This document shows, in pieces, positions 4,896 through 28,628 of a DNA stretch of 64,000 nucleotides. The DNA comes from Deltaproteobacteria bacterium (GTDB lineage: Bacteria; Desulfobacterota; GWC2-55-46; UBA9637), in assembly GCA_030690165.1 (NCBI GenBank), contig JAUYHF010000007.1, positions 131,420 through 195,419 on the forward strand, given 5' to 3'. The notes under the pieces were generated by a model. The model had not been told where the DNA came from and made no database searches. It was given only the letters and a program-made list of their open reading frames with translations. A program made the position numbers and the translations under genes. Numbering within the stretch: the stretch's first letter is position 1; every line of letters starts with the position of its first letter.

Positions 4896-6086
4896 ATGAG
4901 CCCCTCAAATCTATCCATAAATGGTTTTAAATCAGCAGGCATCTGCTGCGGAATAAAGAAGGACGGGGGAAAAGACCTTGCCCTGATATATTCTGAATTG
5001 CCTGCCACTCTTGCAGGTGTGTTTACAAAAAATAAAATAAAGGCAGCGCCTGTCCTTATTGATATGCAGAGGATTAAAAAAGGTCTGTGTCAGGCAATAA
5101 TTATAAACAGCGGCAATGCCAATGCCTGCACAGGCAAAAAAGGCATGGAAGATGCAAAAAGCATGGTCGCGGCAGTCGAAGATGCGCTTGGAATAAAAAA
5201 GGGTTTTGCAATGGTCTCGTCAACAGGGGTTATTGGGCAGAGGCTCCCGATTGACAGGCTAAAAAAAGGCATTCCAAAACTTGTTTTCTCCCTTTCATCA
5301 AAAGGCTGGAATGATGCAGTTAATGCGATTATGACAACAGACGCATTTCCAAAGATTGCGTTTGAAAAATGCAGAATAGGCGGCAAAGATATTACTGTTT
5401 TAGGTATCGCCAAGGGCGCGGGTATGATATGCCCGAATATGGCTACTATGCTGGCATTTATCGTAACTGATGCAGAGGTAGAAAGAAAAACATTGCAATC
5501 GGCTTTGAAAAAAGCGGTTGACAAATCATTTAACTGCATAACAGTGGACGGAGATACATCAACTAATGATACTGTGTTGCTCATGGCCAATGGAAAAGCA
5601 GGGAATAAGCACTTTACAGTTCACAGTTCACAGTTCACACCTTTTTATCAGATGCTTGAAAAGGTCTGTCAGAGTCTTGCAAAGATGATTGTAAGGGATG
5701 GTGAAGGTGCAACAAAGCTATTGGAGTTTAATGTTAGCGGCGCAAAGACAGATAAAGACGCAAAAAAGATCGCAGAGACTGTTGCCAATTCGCCTCTTGT
5801 GAAGACGGCATTCTTTGGCGAGGATGCCAATTGGGGAAGAATAATTGCTGCAATAGGCCGTTCAGGCGCATATGTGAAAGAAGAAAAGATAAATATATAT
5901 TTCAATGGTGTGCCTGTTGTGTTAAGAGGTCTTGACGCAGACAGAGAAAGGGATGCGGCAAAGGCTGTTAAGAATGAGAATATATGCGTAAAGATTGAGA
6001 TGGGTTTGAGCAAAGGCAAAAAGACAGTCTGGGCAAGCGATCTGTCGTATGATTATGTAAAGATAAATGCGGCGTATAGAAGCTGA
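4896..6086 (+). CDS. argJ: bifunctional glutamate N-acetyltransferase / amino-acid acetyltransferase ArgJ
   Basis: ATMLAFIVTDA autoprocessing region, TVDGDTSTNDTV and DGEGATKLLE motifs; 396 aa; carries an in-frame CAGTTCA x3 heptamer array at 5617-5639. Confidence 0.9.
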   Translation: MSPSNLSINGFKSAGICCGIKKDGGKDLALIYSELPATLAGVFTKNKIKAAPVLIDMQRIKKGLCQAIIINSGNANACTGKKGMEDAKSMVAAVEDALGIKKGFAMVSSTGVIGQRLPIDRLKKGIPKLVFSLSSKGWNDAVNAIMTTDAFPKIAFEKCRIGGKDITVLGIAKGAGMICPNMATMLAFIVTDAEVERKTLQSALKKAVDKSFNCITVDGDTSTNDTVLLMANGKAGNKHFTVHSSQFTPFYQMLEKVCQSLAKMIVRDGEGATKLLEFNVSGAKTDKDAKKIAETVANSPLVKTAFFGEDANWGRIIAAIGRSGAYVKEEKINIYFNGVPVVLRGLDADRERDAAKAVKNENICVKIEMGLSKGKKTVWASDLSYDYVKINAAYRS

Positions 6087-6090
6087 AAAA

Positions 6091-6170
6091 AGAGTCAGAG
6101 AGTCAGAGTGTCAAAGAGTCAGAGCAATATCAAAAAGTTTGACTCTATGACTCTTTGAATCTTTGACTCT
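6091..6170. repeat. octamer-unit repeat array; left terminal inverted repeat of the HEPN cassette (33-bp IR at 6138-6170)
   Basis: AGAGTCAG-type units 6091-6125 followed by TTTGACTCT-type units 6138-6170; 6138-6170 is the exact reverse complement of 6612-6644. Confidence 0.75.
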
Positions 6171-6185
6171 AAACCGGAGGTTTTT

Positions 6186-6608
6186 ATGGAAGGTTTGGCA
6201 AAAGAGGCAGACAGGTGGTTTAGGCAGGCAGAGAATGATCTGAAGTCAGCAGGATGGAGCCAGCAGGGCGGTTTTTACGCGCATGCGTGTTTCTGGGCTC
6301 AACAAGGTGCTGCAAAGACGCTGCGGGCATTCCTGTTCATGCAAAAGGAGGATGCAAGGGAGACTCGTTCTGTCAGCGAACTCCTTGAAAGGTGCCTTAC
6401 ATACGATGAAGACTTTAAGGCAATTGTTGAATCCGGCAGCAGATTAGATATATATTACAAGACAAGCCGGTATCCTGACAGCCTTCCAGGCGGCATACCT
6501 GCCGAGATTATATCTGCCAGAGATTCCAAAGAGGCGATAAAGATCGCATCGGATATTTTTGCCCTTGTGGAGGAAAAGAGAAAGACGTATATTCCGGAAG
6601 TGATGTGA
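6186..6608 (+). CDS. HEPN domain protein, solo (no nucleotidyltransferase partner)
   Basis: 140 aa helical protein with the HEPN-family RYP signature (YYKTSRYPDSLPGG); own RBS GGAGG at 6176-6180; a position expected to be His is Arg (TRSV). Confidence 0.65.
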   Translation: MEGLAKEADRWFRQAENDLKSAGWSQQGGFYAHACFWAQQGAAKTLRAFLFMQKEDARETRSVSELLERCLTYDEDFKAIVESGSRLDIYYKTSRYPDSLPGGIPAEIISARDSKEAIKIASDIFALVEEKRKTYIPEVM

Positions 6609-6611
6609 AAC

Positions 6612-6699
6612 AGAGTCAAAGATTCAAAGAGTCATAGAGTCAAAATTTTGCTGCTGTTTCAATTACTCTGACTCTGCGACCCTCTGACTCTTTGACTCT
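6612..6699. repeat. octamer-unit repeat array; right terminal inverted repeat of the HEPN cassette (33-bp IR at 6612-6644)
   Basis: 6612-6644 AGAGTCAAAGATTCAAAGAGTCATAGAGTCAAA is the reverse complement of 6138-6170; a second inverted array at 6664-6699. Confidence 0.75.
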
Positions 6700-6715
6700 A
6701 TCAAAAGGAGTCCTA

Positions 6716-7495
6716 TTGCCAGATACCTTAATTTACATCTTCACATTTATTTTCGGCAGCATTGTAGGAAGTTTTTTAAATGTCTGCATCCACCGCATCC
6801 CAGAAGGCAAATCAATAATATTTCCTCCATCCTCTTGTCCGAATTGCAATAATCCTATTGCATTTTATGATAATATTCCTATTGTAAGTTATATTGTCCT
6901 TCTTGGCAGGTGCCGTAGCTGCAAAACTCCTATCTCGCTGCGGTATCCTTTTGTGGAATTTTTAACAGGTCTTTTTGCTATAATGCTTTTACATAAATAT
7001 GGTTTTTCAGTGATGTTTTTTATCTATTTTCCCTTTGTGTCAAGCCTTATCGTAATAACATTCATAGATATTAAATATCGGATAATTCCTGATGTTATAA
7101 GTCTTCCCGGGATTGGTGTAGGCTTGTTGGCTTCTTATTTTTTGCCTGTCGGGATATTGAATTCTGTCATAGGGGTTTTAGTCGGAGGCGGAACCCTTTT
7201 TCTGATTGCCTTTAGCTATCACTTTGTTACAGGCAGGGAAGGCATGGGTGGCGGAGATATAAAGCTCCTTGCAATGATAGGCGCATTTCTTGGTTGGAAA
7301 GCCGTTATAATAACCTTATTCACAGGCTCGTTTATTGGCGCTGCTGCCGGGTTTGTATTGATGCTGGCAAAAGGTAAGGACAGCAAATACGCCATACCCT
7401 TTGGTCCGTTTCTTGCCGTAGGCGCGCTAATTTCCCTCTTTTTTGGAGAATACCTTATAAAATGGTATTTATCGGGTATGCGGGCGGGTATGTGA
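6716..7495 (+). CDS. pilD: prepilin peptidase (A24 family)
   Basis: GSFLNVCIHRIP, CPNC ... CRSC tetracysteine motif and GGGDIKLL region; track ORF starts at TTG 6692 inside the repeat; TTG 6716 after RBS AAAGGAG is the more plausible start. Confidence 0.85.
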   Translation: MPDTLIYIFTFIFGSIVGSFLNVCIHRIPEGKSIIFPPSSCPNCNNPIAFYDNIPIVSYIVLLGRCRSCKTPISLRYPFVEFLTGLFAIMLLHKYGFSVMFFIYFPFVSSLIVITFIDIKYRIIPDVISLPGIGVGLLASYFLPVGILNSVIGVLVGGGTLFLIAFSYHFVTGREGMGGGDIKLLAMIGAFLGWKAVIITLFTGSFIGAAAGFVLMLAKGKDSKYAIPFGPFLAVGALISLFFGEYLIKWYLSGMRAGM

Positions 7496-9278: not shown

Positions 9279-10622
9279 ATGAAAATTTTAATCATTGACG
9301 ACGAAGATTCCATGCGCCACATGCTTTCCATAATCCTGAAAAAGGAAGGCTATGATGCGGTTTCTGCAGAAAGCGGCCGGCAGGCAATTAAGATGCTGGA
9401 GAAGGAAGATTTTGATTTTATACTCTGCGATATAAGGATGCCGGAGATGAACGGGATGGAATTTCTAAAAAGCCATCAGCTATCAGCTATCAGCCATCAG
9501 CCTGTGGTCATTATGATGTCCGCTTACGGCGCCATTGACACAGCAATCGAGTGCATGAAACTCGGCGCATACGATTATATTTCAAAGCCATTTAAGACAG
9601 ATGAGATTATACTTACATTAAAAAAGGCAGAGGAGAGAGAAAGGCTTAAACGGGAAAACACAAGATTTAAACATATTGCCGAGCAAGAATATGACCTCAA
9701 GAATATTATCACAGAAGATAAACAACTACTTGAAATATTTAAACTTATAAAGAAGGTGGCAGACTATAATACCACTGTCTTAATCACGGGAGAAAGTGGT
9801 ACCGGAAAAGAGCTCATAGCAAGGGCTATCCATTATCATGGTAAAAGAAAGGATAAGCTCTTTGTTGCTGTAAACTGTGGCGCGATTCCAGCAATGCTTC
9901 TTGAGAGCGAGCTCTTCGGTCATGTCAAAGGCGCATTTACTGATGCTGTAAGAAATAAGCCGGGTCTTTTTGAAGAGGCAGATGCAGGGACTATGTTTTT
10001 AGATGAGATAGGCGAGCTTCCAAAGGAGCTTCAGGTAAAACTTTTAAGGGTGATTCAGGAGGGTGAAATAAGAAGGGTTGGCGATTCTAAATCTAAAAAA
10101 ATAGATGTTAGGATTATAGCCGCAACTGCCAGAGACCTGTCAGAAGAAATCAAGAAAGGCAGTTTCAGGGAAGACCTCTTTTACCGCCTGAATGTTGTAA
10201 ACATAAATCTGCCGCCGCTGCGGGAGAGAAAGGGAGATATACCAACCCTTGCCTGGCATTTTTTAAAAATATACTCTGATAAATTCGGCAAGCCGCTAAA
10301 AGGCATAGATAAAGAGGCGATGGATGCCATTTCAAGCTATCAATGGCCCGGGAATGTAAGAGAATTGGAGAATGTGATGGAGAGGGCAGTGATACTTGAA
10401 GACGCTGATGTAATAACACAGAAGAGCCTTCCGTTTTTTAAGACACCAGCCCCCGGTCCCCAGCCCCCGGGTCTTTCTATAAAGAAGGCGGAAGAGGTTG
10501 TTGAAAAAGAGCTTATAAAAAAAGCCCTTGACGCAACAGGCGGCAACAAGACCAAGGCAGCGGAGCTTTTAGAGATTAGCCACAGGGCGCTTTTGTATAA
10601 GATAAAGGGGTATGGGTTGTAA
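9279..10622 (+). CDS. sigma-54-dependent response regulator, NtrC family, PilR-like
   Basis: Receiver domain (DIRMPEMNG), AAA+ sigma-54 interaction domain (GESGTGKE, GAFTDA, ESELFGH), C-terminal Fis-type HTH; in-frame heptamer array 9473-9502 within the receiver domain. Confidence 0.85.
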   Translation: MKILIIDDEDSMRHMLSIILKKEGYDAVSAESGRQAIKMLEKEDFDFILCDIRMPEMNGMEFLKSHQLSAISHQPVVIMMSAYGAIDTAIECMKLGAYDYISKPFKTDEIILTLKKAEERERLKRENTRFKHIAEQEYDLKNIITEDKQLLEIFKLIKKVADYNTTVLITGESGTGKELIARAIHYHGKRKDKLFVAVNCGAIPAMLLESELFGHVKGAFTDAVRNKPGLFEEADAGTMFLDEIGELPKELQVKLLRVIQEGEIRRVGDSKSKKIDVRIIAATARDLSEEIKKGSFREDLFYRLNVVNINLPPLRERKGDIPTLAWHFLKIYSDKFGKPLKGIDKEAMDAISSYQWPGNVRELENVMERAVILEDADVITQKSLPFFKTPAPGPQPPGLSIKKAEEVVEKELIKKALDATGGNKTKAAELLEISHRALLYKIKGYGL

Positions 10623-10767: not shown

Positions 10768-11112
10768 TTGCAGGAGAGCCCCTTGAATAAAGAAGCAGAT
10801 GAGAAAGAGGTTTTATCAGAGCTAAAGCATGCCATTATGGAGATTTGCGGCAAACAGGTAGTCAGGTTTGTGCTTTACGGCTCAAGGGCAAGGGGGGATT
10901 ACGACAAAGAGTCGGATATAGACATAGCGATTGTTGTCAGGGGTATGACAAGAGAACTTAAAAACCGGATATTAGATGCTGTGTGTGACATAGAGATTAA
11001 ATATCTTACTCCCCTTTCAACTCTTGTCTTTTCCGAGGAGGATTTTGAGTTTCTGAAAAGCAGGGAGAGAAGGATAGCCCTCGATATCGAAAGGGAAGGG
11101 ATACCGTTATGA
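10768..11112 (+). CDS. minimal nucleotidyltransferase (MNT), antitoxin-like
   Basis: GSRARGDYDKESDIDIAIV is the GS-Xn-DxD nucleotidyltransferase motif; TTG start; overlaps the next ORF by 4 nt. Confidence 0.7.
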   Translation: MQESPLNKEADEKEVLSELKHAIMEICGKQVVRFVLYGSRARGDYDKESDIDIAIVVRGMTRELKNRILDAVCDIEIKYLTPLSTLVFSEEDFEFLKSRERRIALDIEREGIPL

Positions 11113-11513
11113 CGGAAGGGAATAAGAAAGACAATATCAAGATTCAACTTGAGAAGGCATCCGAAATTTTAAAAGAGGCAAATTTGCTTTTTGAGAATAA
11201 CCTTGTAAGAGGCGCAGTTTCAAGGCTCTATTACTATCTGCTTCACACTGTCCGGGCGCTCCTTCTCACCAAAGGGCTTGAACCCAAAAGCCACGAAGGG
11301 GTGTTGAGGGTTTTCGGGCAATATTTTATAAGAGAGGGGATACTGGAGGCAAGGTTTTCCCATATATTCGCAAGGCTGATGAAATACAGGGAGGAGGCTG
11401 ATTACAACCCTGCCTATGTCGTTTCAAAAGATGATTTTGTGGAGTTCAGAAAAGAGGCAGAGGTTATGTGTGACAAGATAAACAGTTATCTGAAGCAGAA
11501 GGGATATGCCTGA
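11109..11513 (+). CDS. HEPN domain protein, partner of the upstream MNT
   Basis: 134 aa helical protein, translationally coupled to MNT (ATGA overlap); typical MNT-HEPN gene order. Confidence 0.65.
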   Translation: MTEGNKKDNIKIQLEKASEILKEANLLFENNLVRGAVSRLYYYLLHTVRALLLTKGLEPKSHEGVLRVFGQYFIREGILEARFSHIFARLMKYREEADYNPAYVVSKDDFVEFRKEAEVMCDKINSYLKQKGYA

Positions 11514-12219: not shown

Positions 12220-12657
12220 ATGTTGAATCAAAAAGGTTTCACCCTTTTAGAGGTTCTGATAGCTATTGTTATTCTTTCTATCGGCCTTCTTGGTGTTGCG
12301 GCGATGCAGACTACAGCGATATTAGGCAATACCTCTGCCATGAATAGGAGTCGCGCCATTGGTCTTGCAGAGGAGATGGCGGACAGGGTAAGGGTAAATG
12401 CGGGTAGCACACCGAATATTTACGACGCGATTGACACGAGCGGCGTTTGCGGAGGGAGCGAACCTGCCCTCGGAGACTGCACACAGTGGCAGGCAAGGCT
12501 CCAGGCATCGGCACTTCCAAATGCCTTTGGCACGGTTGCCGTTACAATGGATTCCCCGATTCCAAAGGCTGCAACAATTACTATTACCGTTACATGGGGG
12601 ATAGGCGCAACCGGCAGCGCAACAATCACAACTATTATGGAGACATGGCTAACTTAA
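12220..12657 (+). CDS. pilV: type IV pilus minor pilin PilV-like
   Basis: Prepilin N-terminus KGFTLLEVLIAIVILSIGLLGVAAMQ. Confidence 0.7.
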   Translation: MLNQKGFTLLEVLIAIVILSIGLLGVAAMQTTAILGNTSAMNRSRAIGLAEEMADRVRVNAGSTPNIYDAIDTSGVCGGSEPALGDCTQWQARLQASALPNAFGTVAVTMDSPIPKAATITITVTWGIGATGSATITTIMETWLT

Positions 12658-12661
12658 AAGA

Positions 12662-12680
12662 CAGGGATCAGGGGTCGGGG
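12662..12680. repeat. left 19-bp inverted repeat flanking the four-helix-bundle gene
   Basis: CAGGGATCAGGGGTCGGGG is the exact reverse complement of 13141-13159. Confidence 0.7.
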
Positions 12681-12744
12681 GCCAGGGAACAGGGAACGAA
12701 AAAACTGGAAACGAAACAGGGGTCATGTATCAGGAGATAAAGCA

Positions 12745-14304
12745 ATGGATATTAAGAGTTATCAAGATTTAGAAGTATGGCAGAAGGCAATGGATTTAGT
12801 CATGGAGTGTTACCAAATGACAAAAACTTTTCCTAAAAGTGAAACCTATGGAATAGTCAGTCAATTACAGCGCGCGGCCGTATCTATTCCAGCCAATATT
12901 GCTGAAGGGAGAAGTCGTCAACATACAAAGGAGTTTATCCAACACCTATCTATAGCATATGGGTCGCTTGCAGAATTAGAAACTCATATTCTGCTTGCTG
13001 AACGTCTGAATTATATAGAGGAAGAACAGGTAAAGGGGATTATGTCACAGGCAGCAGAACTTGGTCGAATGTTTAATGGGTTGCAAAAATCTTTAAGGAA
13101 AAGGGTTCAGGGTTCAGAAAGCAATTCTCTTATATCCGATCCCCGACCCCTGATCCCTGACCCCTGTAACAAAGGTTTTTCTCTTGTTGAACTCTTAATA
13201 GCAATGGTTATTGCCTCTGTTGTGGGGTTGGCAGGGATTTCCATATTCTCATCCAGCAACTGGTCGTATAAGACGCAGGAGGATGTAACAGAGGCGCAAC
13301 AGAATGTAAGGGTTGCCACGGACAGGCTTACAAAGGACATAAGGATGGCTGGTTATGGCCTGCCTGACCCGCCGTTTTCGCTCTCCTTCACCGGTCTTCC
13401 AACCACATTTGTCGGTCAATCCGGCGGCAACATAACCTTGACTTCACCGATTACGGTCACAACCAGCGGCGGAGCAGGCGCCCCTGATAGTTTGACCATC
13501 CTTGGGATTGGGTATGAAGTTGGGACATTGGACACCACTACAGCGGTTGTTAATTGCGTCAATGGTATTCAGGCAAATATTAGCGGAGCTAACTGCATCC
13601 GACTCAGTGCCACTGCGAGCGTCCCTGCGGCTGATACAATTGATAGATTTTTCCCCGGGGGGGCGTTTAACAGTAATAGAATGCATATCAGCCTTGGAGG
13701 GGCAAAATACATAGCGCTTGCCGCGGCAGGCCAGACCGGTCAGGCTACCAGAACATTAGCATTGGGAAGCCCATCTACCCTTGATAGAGACTATCCTGAC
13801 GGCACGTCCGTTTATATCGTACAGGCAGTTCAATATACGATAGTATCGGATACTTCTATTGCAGGATGTTCAAGTTCAAATCCGTGTTTGATAAGTTTGG
13901 ATGCTACTGGACTCCGGGGAATGAACGGGGGAGCGCCTTCCAGACAACTCCTTGCTGAAAATATAGAGGACATTCAGTTTGCATACGGCATAGACGCAAA
14001 CCCAAGGGACAAGAAGATAGACGATACAGACGGGGATGGCTCGTTCGAGGGTCTGGATTATATATTCGCCGAGGCGGGCGATACCTTATCAGATCCGTCA
14101 AGCATAATAGTTGTTCGGGCAACTGTTGTGGGAAGGACAAGGAATACAGATATTAAAGGGCAGACTGGTTTTAAGGCGCAGTGTTTCGAAGACCGCCCTG
14201 TTGATGCCGGCACTACTAACTGCACAGGCGCGGCATCCGATGGTTACAGGCGAAGGATATTGACAAAGGTTATAAAGATAAGAAATCCTAAGACAGGGGC
14301 GTAA
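12745..14304 (+). CDS. pilW: single ORF: N-terminal four-helix-bundle protein (23S rRNA intervening-sequence protein / Avd-like family) fused in-frame to PilW-like minor pilin
   Basis: Residues 1-120 (SYQDLEVWQKAMDL ... PKSETYGIVSQLQRAAVSIPANIAEG ... YGSLAELETHILLAERL) match the four-helix-bundle family; after a repeat-encoded linker comes the prepilin motif G/FSLVELLIAMVIASVVG and a PilW-like body; no stop codon between the two parts. Confidence 0.6.
   Translation: MDIKSYQDLEVWQKAMDLVMECYQMTKTFPKSETYGIVSQLQRAAVSIPANIAEGRSRQHTKEFIQHLSIAYGSLAELETHILLAERLNYIEEEQVKGIMSQAAELGRMFNGLQKSLRKRVQGSESNSLISDPRPLIPDPCNKGFSLVELLIAMVIASVVGLAGISIFSSSNWSYKTQEDVTEAQQNVRVATDRLTKDIRMAGYGLPDPPFSLSFTGLPTTFVGQSGGNITLTSPITVTTSGGAGAPDSLTILGIGYEVGTLDTTTAVVNCVNGIQANISGANCIRLSATASVPAADTIDRFFPGGAFNSNRMHISLGGAKYIALAAAGQTGQATRTLALGSPSTLDRDYPDGTSVYIVQAVQYTIVSDTSIAGCSSSNPCLISLDATGLRGMNGGAPSRQLLAENIEDIQFAYGIDANPRDKKIDDTDGDGSFEGLDYIFAEAGDTLSDPSSIIVVRATVVGRTRNTDIKGQTGFKAQCFEDRPVDAGTTNCTGAASDGYRRRILTKVIKIRNPKTGA
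13141..13159. repeat. right 19-bp inverted repeat flanking the four-helix-bundle gene, inside the ORF
   Basis: CCCCGACCCCTGATCCCTG, encodes part of the linker DPRPLIPDP. Confidence 0.7.
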
Positions 14305-14354
14305 AAGACAGTGGTCAGTGGCCAGTGGTCAGTGATCAGAAAAAGAGGTTCAAT

Positions 14355-20003: not shown

Positions 20004-20915
20004 GTGATTTTACTGATCCCTGACCCTCGATCCCTGTATCTATGGAGGGTATTTTTGGAAAAGAAGATATGGGAAGAAAGACGAAAGAAGAAGATTGTTC
20101 TGCCAAAGGAACCCGAATCTGAGAAAAAAGATTATAGAAGATGGACGAAGTATATTATTGCCGCTGTCTTTATTATCCTTTTATTTACCCTCTTAAGGGG
20201 CAAGAAAGAAAAGATAGAGATTCCAGGGCCGGAACAGGAATCAGGGGTCAGGGGTCAGGGGTCAGAAAAACAGGGGGCAGGGGTCGTGGCTCAGAGGTCA
20301 GTGAGTAGTCCAGTCGTTGAGCTGCCGCTGCCGCCTCCGCCTAAAAAAAATACCCCCCCGGAAGTCCTGTTAATAAAGTTAAGCCCAAAGATTGTTTACC
20401 AGGGAACCAAGATAAAGGCAGAGGTTTCAGGCAAGGATGCTGATGAGGATGATGAGGTTACCTATTTTTATGAGTGGCGGAGAAACGATACTGTCTTGCC
20501 TGATAATATCCAGCCGGAGATTGATACAAAGGATTTTAAGAAGGGCGAGCTTATAACCTTGTTTGTTACGCCGTTTGACGGCAAAGACAAGGGGAAGACC
20601 AGATTTTCCAGGACAATTGTTATTGTCAACAGGCCGCCTGAGATAATATCATTCCCGCCTGTGTCTGTTTCCAACGGGAAATATCTGTACGAGGTCAAGG
20701 CAAATGACCCGGATGGCGATGCGCTTACTTATTCTCTTGAAAATGCCCCGTCCGGCATGATAATTGATCCTGCAACAGGCATAATCCGATGGGATATCCC
20801 TGTTACGGCAGATTTAAAATCGGTTACTACCTACAATATAAAGATTGTGGTAAGCGATGGCGATGCCACGGCCTTTCAAGGGTTTTCCATGACCCCTGAT
20901 GTGGAAATTAAATAA
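20004..20915 (+). CDS. membrane-anchored protein with two Ig-like/cadherin-like domains
   Basis: TM segment WTKYIIAAVFIILLFTLL, repeat-encoded linker [13 protein letters not shown], then DADEDDEVTYFYEW and DPDGDALTYSLENAPSGMIIDPATGIIRWDIP; start uncertain (GTG 20004 or TTG near 20055). Confidence 0.5.
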   Translation: MILLIPDPRSLYLWRVFLEKKIWEERRKKKIVLPKEPESEKKDYRRWTKYIIAAVFIILLFTLLRGKKEKIEIPGPEQESGVRGQGSEKQGAGVVAQRSVSSPVVELPLPPPPKKNTPPEVLLIKLSPKIVYQGTKIKAEVSGKDADEDDEVTYFYEWRRNDTVLPDNIQPEIDTKDFKKGELITLFVTPFDGKDKGKTRFSRTIVIVNRPPEIISFPPVSVSNGKYLYEVKANDPDGDALTYSLENAPSGMIIDPATGIIRWDIPVTADLKSVTTYNIKIVVSDGDATAFQGFSMTPDVEIK

Positions 20916-23529: not shown

Positions 23530-24120
23530 ATGGGTAATTTACAAGTCACCAGTTATAAGTCACCAGTCACCAGTCACAAGACTAAAAACTCAAGTCTGGT
23601 GACTTTGTGTCTGGCGACCTTGTGTCTGGCGACCTTGTGTGTCGGTTGCCAGCAAGGCGCGCCGCCACAGCCCCCTGCGGCAGAGGTAAAAAAAGAGGCT
23701 CCGAAACCGGAGACTGTGCCTATTGCTGGAGAGGCAAAAAAAGAAGAGAAGGCTCCGCCTAAAGCGGATGAGGTAAATCCGCAGAGAAATCCTTTTAAAA
23801 CATTTATTGTTAAAGCAACCGAGAGGCCGTCAGTTGTTGCGCCAAAGACGCCTTTACAGAGGTATGAACTGGAGCAGCTAAAATTAGTGGCAATAATGTG
23901 GGGCATTAACAGCCCCGCAGCCATGGTGGAGACACCGGACGGCAAAGGCTATTCAATAAAAAAAGGATACCTTATCGGGAACAGGGAAGGAAGGGTTAAG
24001 CGGATTGAAAAGGACAGGGTGATAGTGGAGGAGAGGTTTACAGAGGCCCGCGGCGAGGTTGTAACCAACGAGTTTGAAATAAAACTGCCGCTGCCCAAAG
24101 GAGAGGAGGAGTTAAGATGA
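23530..24120 (+). CDS. pilP: type IV pilus assembly lipoprotein PilP
   Basis: Position between pilO and pilQ; Cys-containing signal region (LCVGC); Pro/Ala-rich linker; N-terminal 40 codons are built from inverted heptamer/15-mer arrays, so start is uncertain. Confidence 0.7.
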   Translation: MGNLQVTSYKSPVTSHKTKNSSLVTLCLATLCLATLCVGCQQGAPPQPPAAEVKKEAPKPETVPIAGEAKKEEKAPPKADEVNPQRNPFKTFIVKATERPSVVAPKTPLQRYELEQLKLVAIMWGINSPAAMVETPDGKGYSIKKGYLIGNREGRVKRIEKDRVIVEERFTEARGEVVTNEFEIKLPLPKGEEELR

Positions 24121-27002
24121 AAAATAAAAATGTAAAATGCAAAATGCAAAATACAAAAGGTTTCCTTCCATATTTTATATTCTGCCTGCTGCTTACTATA
24201 TTTTTTACAGGTTGCGCGCCTACTAAGTCGCAGATAAAGAGTGGAGAGGGAGTGGAAAAGGCAGCCATTGAGAAGATTTCGGTTGTTGGAGGGGGGAGGG
24301 AGATATTGATAGAGGCTTCAGGGCCTATAACCTACACTGCCTTTAAGCTTTCTGACCCGGCAAGGCTGGTGCTGGATATTCCAGGGGCAGATATAGAAAA
24401 GGTAAAGGCCCCGATGGATGTTAATAATGAGTTTATAAACAGGATTGTTGTCGCAAGCTACGGGGAGGAGGGAATGGCGCCCATTTCCAGAGTGGAAATA
24501 GGGTTAAAGGAGAGGGTAGCCAGTGATGTAAAGCTCGCAGAAGGCAGTATTCTGGTGGCTTTGAATTATGAAGTTATTCCCCAGCATGAGGCTGAGACAC
24601 CTGTTGTGGTTGAGCCCCAAGTGGCAGAGGAAAAGGCCGCCGAGGCGCCGCCTTTAACAGAGCCCCTCCAGCAGGAGATTGCAAAAAAAGAAGAAGCCAT
24701 AAAGGCGGCTGTGGAAGAGGCCGGCCCTGCCCTTGCTGAGGCTGAAAAGAAAGAGATAAAAAAGGCTGACAAATTGTTGAAGATAGAGACGAGGAAGGAA
24801 AAGAACCGCACAATAATAAAGGTGATTGGCAACGGGCCGATAGGCGATTTTAATGCCTTTACAATGGATAAGCCTGCGCCGTCAAGGATTGTTGTGGATG
24901 TATGGAATGTTAAGAGTTCAATTCCGGGAGACGGTCTTGCTGTAAGCAGTCCTTATGTAAAGAAGGTAAGGGTAGGTGAACATCCGGATAAGGTGAGGCT
25001 CGTGTTTGATTCAGGCCAGAAGAATGTGCCGCCCTATACAATAGAGAGGGTTGACAACTCCCTTGTAATAACTGTCGGCAGGATTGATGTAAAGAAGCCT
25101 GAAACAGCCGCAGTAGTTGCTCCGGTAACTGCGCCGCAAGAGCCTCCTGTGGAAACAGCACAGCAGCCTTCGGCAGCCGTGCCCGCTCCTGAACCTGTAA
25201 AGGCCGATTATGCAGAAATCAAGGCGGTTGATTTCAAGCAGCTTGCGGATAAGGCAAGGCTTATTATAACTGCGTCAAAGAAGATAGAATACAGATTGTT
25301 AAAATTACCGGATGAAACAGGACTGGCGCTGGATATTAAGGATGCTATAATACCTGACGAACTCAAACGGACACTCGACGCCTCTGACCTTAACACGCCA
25401 GTGGCCAGCATAAGCTCATTCCAGGCGACTACTGAGTCTGCAAAGGATGTCCGTATACTTGTTAAATTAAAAGAAAAGGCTATTTATGATATTTCACAGG
25501 AAGGCGAAAGAATACAAATAGATTTTCCGCTGCTCGCAGCGGCGCAGGCGGTTCCAAAGATGGCAGAGATAAAAAGTCAGGAGTCAGAGCTCAGGGGCCT
25601 GCCCCCGAATGTTTCTATCGGGGGTCAGGAGATAAAAGAAACAAAGCTGGCAGAAGATGCTATAAACAAGGAACAGGCATCAGGCTATACAGGACGCAAG
25701 ATTTCTCTGGACTTTAAGGATGCTGATATAAGTAATATTTTGAGATTGATGGCAGAGGTCAGCAATCTGAATATTATTGCGGGCGAGGATGTTAAAGGCA
25801 AGGTTTCGTTAAGATTGATAGATGTTCCATGGGATCAGGCATTCGAGATCATATTAAAAACAAACGGTCTTGGCAAGGTTCAGGAAGGGAATGTAGTAAG
25901 GATTTTGCCCCTTGCTAAGATAAAACAGGAGAGTGAAGATGCGCTTGCCTCTAAAAAGGCAAAGGAAAAACTTGAAGACCTTGAGATAAAATTGCTGTCT
26001 GTCAACTACGCAACTGCCAGCGCTTTAGAATCCCAGGTCAAAGGCTTATTAAGCGATAGGGGGACTGTTACAGTAGAGGCAAGGACGAATACGCTTATTA
26101 TTAAAGATATCCCTGCCAATATAGCAAAGGCAGTGGACATGGCAAAGAAATTGGATACGCCGACGCCGCAGGTCTTGATAGAGGCAAGGATCGTAGAGGC
26201 GCAGAGCAGTTTTGCAAGGGACCTCGGTGTGCAGTGGGGCGCTGCTACTCTTACAACAAGCAAAAATAAGTTTAGCAGCGGGTTTGGCAGCGCTTCGGCT
26301 ACCCCATCGCCCACCCTTACCCCCACTAGTACCACTACCACCCCCACTACCCCCAGTTTTATCAGCTCAGGGGGGCAGTTCTCATCGCAGCCTAATTTTG
26401 CGGTAAGCCTTCCTGCGGCGGGCGCTGCAGGGACATTGGGCGCAATGGGTTTTTCGTTCGGTAAACTTATAGGCGACCCGTTTCTTTTAGACCTCCGCAT
26501 ATCAGCCGGCGAAAAAAATGGTTTGACAAAGACCATATCAAGGCCGAGGATTACCACACTGAATAATAAGGAGGCCAAAATATCTCAAGGCGACTCAGTG
26601 CCATTTGAAACAACATCTTCTTCTGGCACACAAACCTCTTTTATTGATGCAACACTTGAACTCATTGTTACTCCGCATATAACCCCGGACGGCAGCGTGA
26701 GCATGAAAATCAAGGCCAGCAGGAACTCAATAGGCTCTTTCAGATCTGCTGCCGGTACGCCGAGCATAAGCAAAAAAGAGGCGTCTACAGAGATAATTGT
26801 AAAAAGCGGGGAGACAGCGGTTATCGGCGGCATTGTGATAGAGGATAAGTCAGATACCGGCAGCGGCATACCATGGCTTAAGGATATCCCTATACTCGGC
26901 TGGCTCTTTAAAAACAAATCAACATCAGAAAGCCAGACAGAGCTCCTGATATTTATTACGCCGAATATTGTAAGCGGCGAAGTGGAGTTGTCGCCAAGTT
27001 AA
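24117..27002 (+). CDS. pilQ: type IV pilus secretin PilQ
   Basis: 961 aa; signal peptide; repeated N-terminal beta domains; C-terminal secretin domain (NTLIIKDIPANIAKAVDMAKKLD ... VLIEARIVEA ... LLIFITP). Confidence 0.9.
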   Translation: MKNKNVKCKMQNTKGFLPYFIFCLLLTIFFTGCAPTKSQIKSGEGVEKAAIEKISVVGGGREILIEASGPITYTAFKLSDPARLVLDIPGADIEKVKAPMDVNNEFINRIVVASYGEEGMAPISRVEIGLKERVASDVKLAEGSILVALNYEVIPQHEAETPVVVEPQVAEEKAAEAPPLTEPLQQEIAKKEEAIKAAVEEAGPALAEAEKKEIKKADKLLKIETRKEKNRTIIKVIGNGPIGDFNAFTMDKPAPSRIVVDVWNVKSSIPGDGLAVSSPYVKKVRVGEHPDKVRLVFDSGQKNVPPYTIERVDNSLVITVGRIDVKKPETAAVVAPVTAPQEPPVETAQQPSAAVPAPEPVKADYAEIKAVDFKQLADKARLIITASKKIEYRLLKLPDETGLALDIKDAIIPDELKRTLDASDLNTPVASISSFQATTESAKDVRILVKLKEKAIYDISQEGERIQIDFPLLAAAQAVPKMAEIKSQESELRGLPPNVSIGGQEIKETKLAEDAINKEQASGYTGRKISLDFKDADISNILRLMAEVSNLNIIAGEDVKGKVSLRLIDVPWDQAFEIILKTNGLGKVQEGNVVRILPLAKIKQESEDALASKKAKEKLEDLEIKLLSVNYATASALESQVKGLLSDRGTVTVEARTNTLIIKDIPANIAKAVDMAKKLDTPTPQVLIEARIVEAQSSFARDLGVQWGAATLTTSKNKFSSGFGSASATPSPTLTPTSTTTTPTTPSFISSGGQFSSQPNFAVSLPAAGAAGTLGAMGFSFGKLIGDPFLLDLRISAGEKNGLTKTISRPRITTLNNKEAKISQGDSVPFETTSSSGTQTSFIDATLELIVTPHITPDGSVSMKIKASRNSIGSFRSAAGTPSISKKEASTEIIVKSGETAVIGGIVIEDKSDTGSGIPWLKDIPILGWLFKNKSTSESQTELLIFITPNIVSGEVELSPS

Positions 27003-27392: not shown

Positions 27393-28628
27393 ATGCTGAG
27401 ATACTTAACAGCAGGTGAATCACACGGTAAATATTTGACTGCCATTCTGGAAGGCGCGCCGGCAAATCTTAATTTGGCTGCGGATGATATAAATAAAGAA
27501 CTAAGCCGCAGGCAGATTGGCTACGGCCGCGGCGGCAGAATGGCTATTGAAAAAGATGAAGCAGAGATTACATCGGGGGTAAGGTTTGGCAAGACCATAG
27601 GTTCGCCTATTGCTATGGTTATAAAAAATAGAGATTGGGAGAATTGGAAAGAGGTTATGAATACAGGGGTCAGGGGTCAGGGGTCAGGGGTCAAAGAGAT
27701 TACCCATCCAAGGCCGGGCCATGCGGATCTGGCAGGCGCCTTGAAATATGGCCAGTATGATATTCGCAATATTCTTGAACGTTCCAGCGCAAGGGAAACC
27801 GCGGCGCGGGTTGCTGTTGGCGCAGTATGTAAAAGATTTCTGGATGAGATTGGGATAAAAGTGATGAGTTGGGTGGTGGATATAGCAGGGGTCAGGGGTC
27901 AGGGGTCAGGGGTCAGAGAGGAGAATGATATAGAAGCAATTTTTAAACTGGCAGAAGCATCTGATGTGCGTTGTCCTGATAAAAAGATTGCAGAAAAAAT
28001 GAGAAAGGCGATAGATAGGGCAAGAAAAAACGGCGACAGCCTTGGCGGGATATTTGAGGTTGCTGTAACCGGCGTTCCTCCGGGTCTTGGAAGCCATGTC
28101 CAGTGGGATAGAAAATTAGATGGGAATCTGGCAAGGGCGCTTATGAGCATTCAGGCCATAAAAGGGGTTGAGGCGGGTATAGGGTTTGAAGCGGCTGAGA
28201 GATTTGGATCAGAGGTGCATGATGAGATATTTTATAAAATCTCCCCTGACCCCTCTTTGCCAAAGAGGGGAAAATCATCTCCCCCTTTGGAAAAGGGGGA
28301 TAAAGGGGGATTTTACAGAAAAACCAACAATGCCGGCGGCATAGAGGGAGGCATGAGCAACGGCGAACCGATTATACTCCGGGCTGCGATGAAACCGATA
28401 CCAACATTATATAAACCGCTTCGGTCAATAGATATAAAAACAAAAAAGCAGTTTCAGGCAAGTGTTGAAAGGTCGGATATATGCGCTGTGCCTGCTGCTT
28501 CAGTGGTTGGCGAGGCAGTTGTTGCCTTTGAGATAGCCAATGCCTTTATAGATAAATTTGGCGGCGATTCTATCTATGAGGTAAAAAGGAATTATAAGGG
28601 GTATCTGGAGTATTTGAGGAAGTTTTAA
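27393..28628 (+). CDS. aroC: chorismate synthase
   Basis: [30 protein letters not shown] motifs; 411 aa, about 50 aa longer than typical because of three repeat-encoded in-frame insertions. Confidence 0.9.

Follow-up and report, generated by a model that had tools for sequence, protein, structure and literature searches.

The closest described counterpart of the gene reported here is the intervening sequence (IVS) of 23S rRNA that carries an open reading frame (ORF) for an S23p-type four-helix-bundle (4HB) protein in Leptospira, Coxiella burnetii, Brucella, and Xanthomonas (PMC4990558). In Coxiella, a 28-bp stem encloses the S23p ORF in its loop, heptamer repeats precede the ATG of the ORF, and RNase III excises the insert (PMC4990558). 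We describe a gene of the same family (PF05635) that lies between pilV and pilW in the type IV pilus cluster of an uncultured "Deltaproteobacteria"/Thermodesulfobacteriota metagenome-assembled genome and that is read in frame into the minor pilin PilW. It was found in a 64,000-nucleotide stretch of contig JAUYHF010000007.1 (assembly GCA_030690165.1), called the window below, to which coordinates refer unless another locus is named. All of the data are metagenomic, and several of the compared loci are short contigs. The locus resembles the rRNA IVS in protein family and 2GSC-like fold, in having its ORF in a stem loop between terminal inverted repeats with tandem heptamers just upstream of the start, and in the co-orientation of the ORF with the host transcript on which it depends; cargo-less hairpins exist as well.

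Other described systems share particular features with this locus. The accessory protein Avd (4DWL, 8UB7; bAvd, PF22296) belongs to the same 4HB superfamily, with a Foldseek TM-score of ~0.85. Intergenic heptamer arrays (Xanthomonas GGGAATC, Nostoc GGGGAYT, Beggiatoaceae TAACTGA, and the cyanobacterial STRR; PMC4692102, PMC4679880) likewise consist of G-rich 7-nt units of the form (G4N3)n, lie between co-directional ORFs near stops and starts, occasionally occur as inverted pairs, and show indels in 7-nt steps. Type IV prepilins with long leaders (type IVb, ~15-30 aa) have the class III signal peptide (G/F...E5) and the prepilin peptidase processing predicted here, and modular pilins, such as Streptococcus sanguinis PilB with its C-terminal module (PMC8179133), also have an extra domain grafted onto the pilin scaffold. 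The literature yielded nothing relevant on 4HB-pilin fusions or on IVS-type cassettes in mRNA spacers; its coverage was incomplete, and this absence is weak evidence.

A single ORF on the forward strand (12745-14304; ATG start, 519 aa, no interruption) encodes a complete 4HB protein, a linker, a prepilin site, and a PilW body. ORF scanning and Pfam thereby bear out the preliminary description of this DNA, except that the leader, at 144 aa, is slightly longer than was implied. The locus contains the following features:

12661..12697, + strand: forward array of the ACAGGGA/CAGGGGT type, which holds the left inverted-repeat arm 12662-12680 (repeats, RNA fold)
12731..12735, + strand: Shine-Dalgarno (SD) sequence AGGAG, 9 nt (ATAAAGCA A) before the cassette ATG at 12745
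12745..13107, + strand: 4HB of the 23S rRNA IVS type, aa 1-121 (Pfam, PDB, AlphaFold2, Foldseek, dN/dS)
13108..13176, + strand: linker and end of the leader, aa 122-144, ending N-K-G144 (AlphaFold2, frame scan)
13138..13166, + strand: reverse array GATCCCC GACCCCT GATCCCT GACCCCT, read as DPRPLIPDP, which holds the right inverted-repeat arm (repeats, RNA fold)
13165..13167, + strand: codon TGT (Cys141), in the place of a TGA stop in the heptamer consensus and in a stand-alone homologue (locus L166)
13177..14304, + strand: mature PilW-like minor pilin, aa 145-519 plus stop (Pfam, AlphaFold2, Foldseek, dN/dS)
14305..14340, + strand: forward array that follows the pilW stop, of the CAGTGGT type, sharing 73% identity with the left arm across 45 nt (repeats)

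Pfam 23S_rRNA_IVP (PF05635) matches aa 7-112 over the full profile (1-106) with an E-value of 1.9e-41 and 141 bits against a cut-off of 33.8, which places the N-terminal part in the PF05635/TIGR02436 family. The AlphaFold2 model (monomer, alignment of 52 sequences) has helices at 6-26, 35-57, 61-87, and 93-121 with predicted local distance difference test scores (pLDDT) >90. Foldseek aligns this up-down four-helix bundle with Xanthomonas 2GSC (TM-score 0.88-0.93, root-mean-square deviation ~1 Å, 42% identity) and also with 2RLD, and phmmer matched 2GSC at E = 3.9e-25. 2GSC and Avd are pentamers, and the bundle described here is probably pentameric too. The preliminary description had named this family and, through it, the Avd proteins of diversity-generating retroelements (DGRs). 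The family assignment stands; the Avd link is weak. Identity to Avd is 12-15%, Pfam bAvd reaches 33 bits against a cut-off of 40, the nearest solved structure, 2GSC, is not from a DGR, and a search for a reverse transcriptase, which the preliminary description had recommended for the full genome, found none among window ORFs of ≥150 aa, template and variable repeats not having been specifically searched for. A DGR role is thus unsupported. A link of the bundle to HEPN proteins was likewise set aside, IVS proteins being unmentioned in the HEPN-superfamily survey.

Residues 122-146 are unstructured in the model (pLDDT 43-57), and the linker is encoded by an (AGGGTTC)2 array plus the reverse heptamer array. 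The mature part has an FSLVE N-terminus, a long alpha-1 helix (147-200), and a beta-strand-rich body; it matches Pfam N_methyl (aa 142-163) and PilW (PF16074, aa 380-514, 40 bits against a cut-off of 26), and its Foldseek neighbors are type IV-like pilins and pseudopilins. The prepilin site, N142-K143-G144/F145-S-L-V-E149, with its Gly codon at 13174-13176, has the G-1, F+1, E+5, and hydrophobic alpha-1 helix of a class III signal peptide (NKG/FSLVELLIAMV), and the gene holds the place of pilW in the order fimT-pilV-pilW-pilX-pilY1. The only pilin feature missing is a start codon of its own with a short leader (~5-30 aa). Together, Pfam, AlphaFold2, and Foldseek predict two folded modules joined by a disordered linker.

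The fusion recurs in relatives. A homologue search with the PilW part alone returned 110 proteins, and eight cluster representatives (P0002, P0010, P0014, P0022, P0033, P0034, P0040, and P0055; PilW identity 48-76%) carry an N-terminal PF05635 domain. At least six further metagenomic loci carry the fusion, in frame in every case, with PilW identities of 48-80%. In each fused locus whose DNA was examined (L091, L098, L114, L162, L163, and L164), a forward array is followed by an SD-like motif, the 4HB ATG, the bundle, a reverse-complement array, and the prepilin Gly. Five different linker lengths occur among fused loci, all multiples of three. In L163 the arrays have CAGTGGT/CACCACT-type units, and the 4HB is 53% identical to that of the window. 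Six fused bundles of the CAGGGGT type are mutually nearest among 130 family members, and P0034 and P0040 are distant; these relationships point to at least two fusion lineages. The preliminary description had named conservation of the fusion in distant relatives without flanking repeats as a finding that would refute it; the fusion is indeed conserved in distant relatives, but the flanking repeats are kept there.

The distance from the 4HB ATG to the prepilin Gly in fused loci is always a multiple of three (429, 426, 417, 399, 390, and 138 nt). In every fused locus, the 4HB frame is open and each other frame is closed by one to three stops, which are array-borne TGA or TAA codons; the window linker has two stops in each of the other frames. 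A perfect array with a TGA-containing unit puts a stop in three frames within 21 nt, and an open passage through the array therefore needs specific variant units. In the stand-alone homologue P0111 (L166), the gene ends CTG ATC CCC GAT CCC TGA (...LIPDP, stop), and the window reads CTG ATC CCT GAC CCC TGT AAC AAA GGT (...LIPDPCNKG) at the same place. In these sequences, a single base (TGA versus TGT) is the difference between a terminated cassette and the fusion.

No in-frame ATG, GTG, or TTG occurs in the window from codon 113 to the Gly codon, in agreement with the earlier claim that no canonical start lies within 25 codons upstream of that Gly. The nearest in-frame starts upstream of the Gly are TTG 13081 and ATG 13069, both within bundle helix 4, and the linker is C-rich and without an SD. 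A canonical start is also absent from the linkers of L091, L114, and L163, and L162 has one TTG; four of the five linker types have none. SD-like motifs precede the 4HB ATG in L091, L114, L162, and L163, and the SD at this place in the window is strong. This pattern supports the cassette as the only plausible source of a ribosome-binding site and start codon for PilW.

The inverted repeat is exact: 12662-12680 and 13141-13159 are 100% complementary (19/19 nt), and the right arm, as first reported, lies inside the reading frame; it encodes P133-D139. A view of the arms as private terminal repeats of a fresh element does not hold. When up to three mismatches are allowed, the window has 13 occurrences of the 19-mer, whereas shuffled sequence predicts 0.02, and Tandem Repeats Finder reports ~25 arrays of 7-nt period in the window. 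The repeat is thus far above chance, yet it belongs to a family of arrays and does not mark unique element ends: the arms are oppositely oriented arrays of a CAGGGGT/ACCCCTG-type heptamer family that litters the genome, not transposon ends. The G-rich left array, with five G-runs, immediately follows the pilV stop; forward arrays also follow the stops of pilW, pilX, and pilY1, and the left arm closely resembles those after pilW and pilX. The array at 14305..14340 shows that forward arrays are ordinary spacers of the pil operon. Arrays also occur inside coding regions (chorismate synthase, a response regulator, and ORF 20004-20915), and tails of the DPRPLIPDP type end stand-alone homologues (P0111, ...NLIPDP and stop; P0153, ...TPDPRPL x4). 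The left array pairs with 13141-13166 in minimum-free-energy and centroid RNA folds, and the stem formed by these terminal inverted repeats encloses the whole cassette, as in an IVS. An Rfam gathering search of the whole window matched no families and no rRNA, and consensus scans of the stretch from pilV through the cassette to pilW revealed no terminator and no internal promoter that scored better than shuffled sequence.

The same layout is seen around stand-alone 4HB genes. The best 120 of 7,940 4HB homologues (68-77% identity) are all stand-alone proteins of 119-167 aa, several of them with N- or C-terminal tails of translated heptamers. DNA was examined for eight stand-alone elements, seven close homologues of the window's bundle and a more distant copy (L083). 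All eight are co-oriented with the upstream gene and lie in operon spacers (for the seven close homologues, ATP-grasp/4HB/PHP; leuC/4HB/leuD/4HB/leuB; dnaJ/4HB/merR-clpB; tail-protein-like gene/4HB/DUF4159; and two more). Each is preceded by a forward array and followed by a reverse-complement array, whose units vary from element to element and agree between the two arms of one element. When 12 elements were compared with shuffles, the duplex energy of the cognate arms was better at z ≤ -3.4 in 10 (from -3.4 down to -9.3; -4.1 for the window), and L163 fails at +0.9; among three further elements, z is -3.7 and -5.4 in two and only -1.6 in L171. On sequence evidence, a gene-in-hairpin layout thus extends over eight stand-alone and ~7 fused examples in leu, dnaJ-clpB, polysaccharide, and pilus operons. 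One leucine operon (L168) has two 4HB cassettes, in the leuC-leuD (988-1353) and leuD-leuB (2001-2372) spacers; the first lies between matching inverted AATCCTA-type arrays, and the second has a reverse ACCCCTG-type array downstream and only a weak forward array upstream.

An unfused 4HB gene directly upstream of pilW was found neither in 161 loci (tblastn) nor in 166 sequences (165 loci plus the window; hidden Markov model), and tblastn found no other 4HB copies in the window. None of 89 PilX relatives from a search with the PilX part of a 4HB-PilX fusion in L165 (see below) is fused. This result and the survey of the best 120 homologues imply that fusion is exceptional and concentrated on pilW.

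Close unfused relatives have their own pilW ATG and a short leader, as in L165/P0003 (78% identity, MRHAPKG/FSL), L082/P0004, and P0011, with MKKQDTRYGGNNKG/FSL as a further example; leaders of unfused relatives span 4-43 aa. The empty pilV-pilW site whose existence the preliminary description had proposed to check is present in L082 and L165. Most junctions examined consist of heptamer arrays, but none was seen in L082 and L002, the closest relatives. At the L165 junction there is a clear hairpin without cargo, (GCATGGG)n - loop - (CCATGCG)n, whose 3' arm contains the pilW ATG, and many other junctions have (AAAATGC)n ... (GCAATTT)n, translated as MQNAKLKMKICNLQFA. In the window, an (AAAATGC)n array (24117-24158) opens the ORF of the secretin gene pilQ; in many relatives, pilW leaders (MQNAKLKMKICNLQFA...) are made up of this unit. 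Across these sequences, the pilW leader region is a habitual site for such hairpins, where anything would be tolerated because it is cleaved off.

L165 also carries a 4HB gene of a different subfamily, between GCATGGG-type arrays, that is fused in frame to PilX (5111-6097). In L103 (1243-1640), a 4HB gene of that subfamily has its own TAG, and the pilX ATG lies inside the reverse array. The L165 fusion retains an in-frame ATG that gives a typical leader (MPHALITNEKG/A), and the PilX fusion may therefore be merely a lost stop.

Both halves of the pilW fusion are conserved. Among fused copies, dN/dS is 0.07-0.18 for the 4HB part at dS of 0.7-1.5 and 0.19-0.24 for the PilW part at similar dS, where values of dS >1 are near saturation. 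The PilW values match those of fused-unfused and unfused-unfused pairs (0.14-0.28), with 0.18-0.28 in unfused relatives. We conclude that both halves are under purifying selection, that neither is decaying, and that they have diverged to a similar degree. The fusion is old, not recent, with relatives at dS of 0.7-1.6. A recent landing is at odds with the presence of fusions with nearest-neighbor 4HB parts at these distances and with the spacer of L091, which is almost identical: L091 3473-3558 differs from window 12640-12725 at only 3 of ~85 positions, with dS of 1.2-1.6 in the adjoining coding regions. This near-identity has one of two explanations, strong constraint acting on the G-rich array or recent recombination across the tract. 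L164 (120-1298) has an in-frame deletion of 291 nt (97 codons) in the 4HB that leaves the ATG, flank, and frame intact; it shares the window's exact upstream flank and first 35 codons, and its PilW body is only 62% identical to that of the window. L164 may be an allele of mosaic or recombinant origin, or else a chimera produced in assembly, and, as a single short contig, it has limited weight.

The reading that we consider fairly probable is that an IVS-like cassette, in which inverted heptamer arrays form the arms of a long-range hairpin and the loop holds a 4HB gene, occupies the pilV-pilW spacer, that it lost its array-borne stop, and that it displaced the pilW start. In this lineage the TGA that normally ends such genes is TGT, and pilW lacks a start and leader of its own, so that a 519-aa precursor, translated from the cassette SD and ATG (12731/12745), would be the only form in which PilW can be made. 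Bundle and linker would then act as a 144-residue cytoplasmic "leader," the hydrophobic FSLVELL... helix would insert N-in, and prepilin peptidase would cut after G144 to give a normal mature PilW and a free 4HB with a proline-rich tail. The sequences themselves show the anatomy of the locus, its recurrence, the maintained frame, the purifying selection on both halves, the hairpin layout across the family, and the one-base stop difference; single-chain translation, membrane insertion, PilD processing, and the release and function of the bundle are what we infer from them. The arrangement would be tolerated because everything upstream of the prepilin Gly is discarded, and the frame would be kept because PilW depends on the fusion. 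The preliminary view of a discrete 4HB cassette between pilV and pilW that supplies the 5' end of PilW agrees with this reading, and the suggested cytoplasmic release of the bundle by PilD fits the predicted topology. The fusion may be essentially a tolerated hitch-hiker.

Alternatively, the two genes could be functionally separate and the stop loss incidental, with PilW made from an internal start at TTG 13081 or at the near-cognate CTG 13150 or ATC 13153, which would give leaders of 9-32 residues. The NCBI pipeline starts PilW at TTG 13081 (P0001, 407 aa), the L162 linker has an in-frame TTG, the L165 PilX fusion has its in-frame ATG, and L103 has a separate 4HB gene; internal initiation is thus possible in some loci. 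However, TTG 13081 is a conserved Leu codon in bundle helix 4 with no SD before it, and the linker, C-rich and SD-less, has no canonical start in four of five types. Moreover, an irrelevant upstream frame should show common stops and frameshifts, and slippage of the arrays in 7-nt steps would shift the frame, yet all fused loci stay in frame despite indels. We judge this alternative unlikely. A less probable possibility still, which we regard as quite doubtful, is that RNase III cuts the stem 12662-12680/13141-13159 and excises the 4HB message, so that the fusion is rarely or never read through and the main role of the hairpin is to set how stable or how strongly expressed the downstream pil genes are. 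The enclosing stem, the complementarity of the arms in 10 of 12 plus 2 of 3 elements with a heptamer type that co-varies between arms, and RNase III cutting of the Coxiella IVS of the same layout (PMC4990558) are consistent with excision. Such excision would leave pilW without a start, yet constraint on PilW equals that in unfused relatives and the frame is kept; in addition, ribosomes from 12745 would unwind the 3' arm, and the fold as a whole reaches a z-score of only -1.8. We regard it as very improbable that a transposon-like element with terminal inverted repeats of its own recently inserted and disrupted pilW, or that a stop is masked by an error of assembly or sequencing. The perfect 19-nt repeat around the gene and the empty sites in L082 and L165 would fit a recent insertion, but no transposase is present, the arms consist of heptamer arrays of a common type, and L091 has the same junction and upstream flank at dS of 1.2-1.6. 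An insertion sequence or transposon was rejected, given that the 4HB is the only cargo, that genome-wide arrays form the arms, and that no target-site duplication was recognized. Assembly error was rejected on the basis of the independent Logan assembly of run SRR13727534, which encodes an identical 519-aa protein, and of homologous fusions in samples from several projects. The comparative data already contradict this last alternative.

Several points weigh against the favored reading of a fused, PilD-processed precursor. Besides the possible internal starts, an RNase III cut of the hairpin, as in rRNA IVS stems, would sever the fused message. Part of the constraint seen on the 4HB could stem from conversion by further copies in the genome. 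We know of no leader this long with a folded, probably pentameric domain, and PilD might not cope with it. Finally, in trees that are simple neighbor-joining trees without support values, fused and unfused alleles interleave on the PilW body. This interleaving rejects a single clade of fused PilW, implies that the fusion is dispensable at clade level, and leaves the body phylogeny unable to count gains and losses. In P0033, a 5' module resembling that of P0002 is joined to a body resembling that of P0013; given this mix and the interleaving, the 5' module recombines independently of the body. The corresponding 4HB tree is star-like and resolves no exclusive clade; nearest-neighbor distances are what supports a common ancestry of the six CAGGGGT-type fused copies. 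A broader version of the favored reading, which we advance tentatively and consider rather unlikely, is that IVS-type 4HB genes are the cargo of widespread, undescribed hairpin elements that colonize heptamer-array spacers of mRNA operons as well as rRNA, and that one of them has been co-opted in the pilus operon, where prepilin peptidase processes a two-protein precursor to release into the cytoplasm an Avd-like, probably nucleic-acid-binding pentamer, made one-to-one with the minor pilin, that has its own function in pilus or DNA-uptake biology.

The fusion gene is part of a complete type IV pilus cluster, which consists of pilD, a sensor kinase and a sigma-54 regulator (pilS/R-like), a GspH/FimT-like pilin, pilV, the fusion gene, pilX (ATG 14355), pilY1, and pilMNOPQ. 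Two of its genes bear directly on the fusion:

6692..7495, + strand: prepilin peptidase PilD (Pfam A24_N_bact and Peptidase_A24)
12220..12657, + strand: pilV-like minor pilin (Pfam N_methyl and Tt1218-like), with TAA at 12655-12657 and the left array directly after

PilD, encoded ~5 kb upstream of the fusion gene, is the enzyme expected to cut G144/F145; its start codon is uncertain, the Logan-called product being shorter. A solo HEPN gene (6186-6608, 140 aa, Pfam HEPN E-value 1e-22) lies between argJ and pilD and is flanked on each side (6091-6171 and 6612-6699) by a hairpin of inverted octamer arrays, AGAGTCAG x4 and TGACTCTA x4. This makes it, after the 4HB cassette, another gene for a small helical protein that is enclosed by hairpins of short repeat units. 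A nucleotidyltransferase and HEPN (MNT/HEPN) pair (10768-11513) separates the gene of the sigma-54 regulator from that of the first minor pilin, and L165 has a HepT and nucleotidyltransferase pair (1478-2339) at the corresponding place on the opposite strand, which suggests that this interval is a hot spot for toxin-antitoxin-like cargo. Immediately after the pilY1 stop there is a cargo-less hairpin (19945-20036/20233-20301) of forward 22-nt units with CAGGGGT/CAGTGGT and then reverse CTGATCC units, and further CAGGGGT arrays lie within ORF 20004-20915 (He_PIG domain). Two perfect (CAGGGGT)4 arrays (27664-27693 and 27886-27916), 222 nt apart, are read in frame within the chorismate synthase coding region (27393-28628); they are (G4N3)4 G-quadruplex-type sequences, and this chorismate synthase is ~58 aa longer than the Pfam profile span. 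In the sigma-54 response regulator, the receiver domain includes the peptide SHQLSAISHQP, the translation of an (AGCCATC)4.6 array (9471-9502).

If the favored reading is true, this would be the first prepilin with a whole folded protein as its "leader peptide." The fusion would be a direct test of how large a load N-in insertion and prepilin peptidase can accept, and it suggests a natural route by which a free cytoplasmic protein is obtained from a membrane-protein precursor. The enigmatic 23S rRNA IVS protein is also taken out of rRNA, into a setting where the function and spread of the protein and its hairpin are tractable. The locus shows how heptamer microsatellites rewire gene boundaries, with TGA- or ATG-containing units acting as three-frame stops or starts and one base change, TGA to TGT, fusing two genes. 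Such genes are also an annotation trap, in that pipelines split or truncate them, as in the 407-aa PilW of NCBI.

The differences from described systems define what is particular to this locus. Unlike the 23S rRNA IVS, which occupies helix 9, 25, or 45, the cassette has a protein-coding operon spacer and leader (pilV-pilW) as its host, and its ORF is stopless and fused to the next gene. Its protein is under strong purifying selection, whereas that of Coxiella is decaying and probably untranslated (PMC4990558), and excision by RNase III would here harm pilW. Unlike Avd, the bundle gene is embedded in a pilus operon. In contrast to the intergenic heptamer arrays described earlier, those reported here form matched inverted pairs around a specific cargo gene and are translated in leaders and linkers, where they supply or remove TGA stops and ATG starts. 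Unlike the modules of long-leader and modular pilins, the module here is N-terminal to the cleavage site and would be cytoplasmic and removed rather than displayed. A prepilin leader of 144 residues that is folded, and that has been kept for dS >1, is unexpected.

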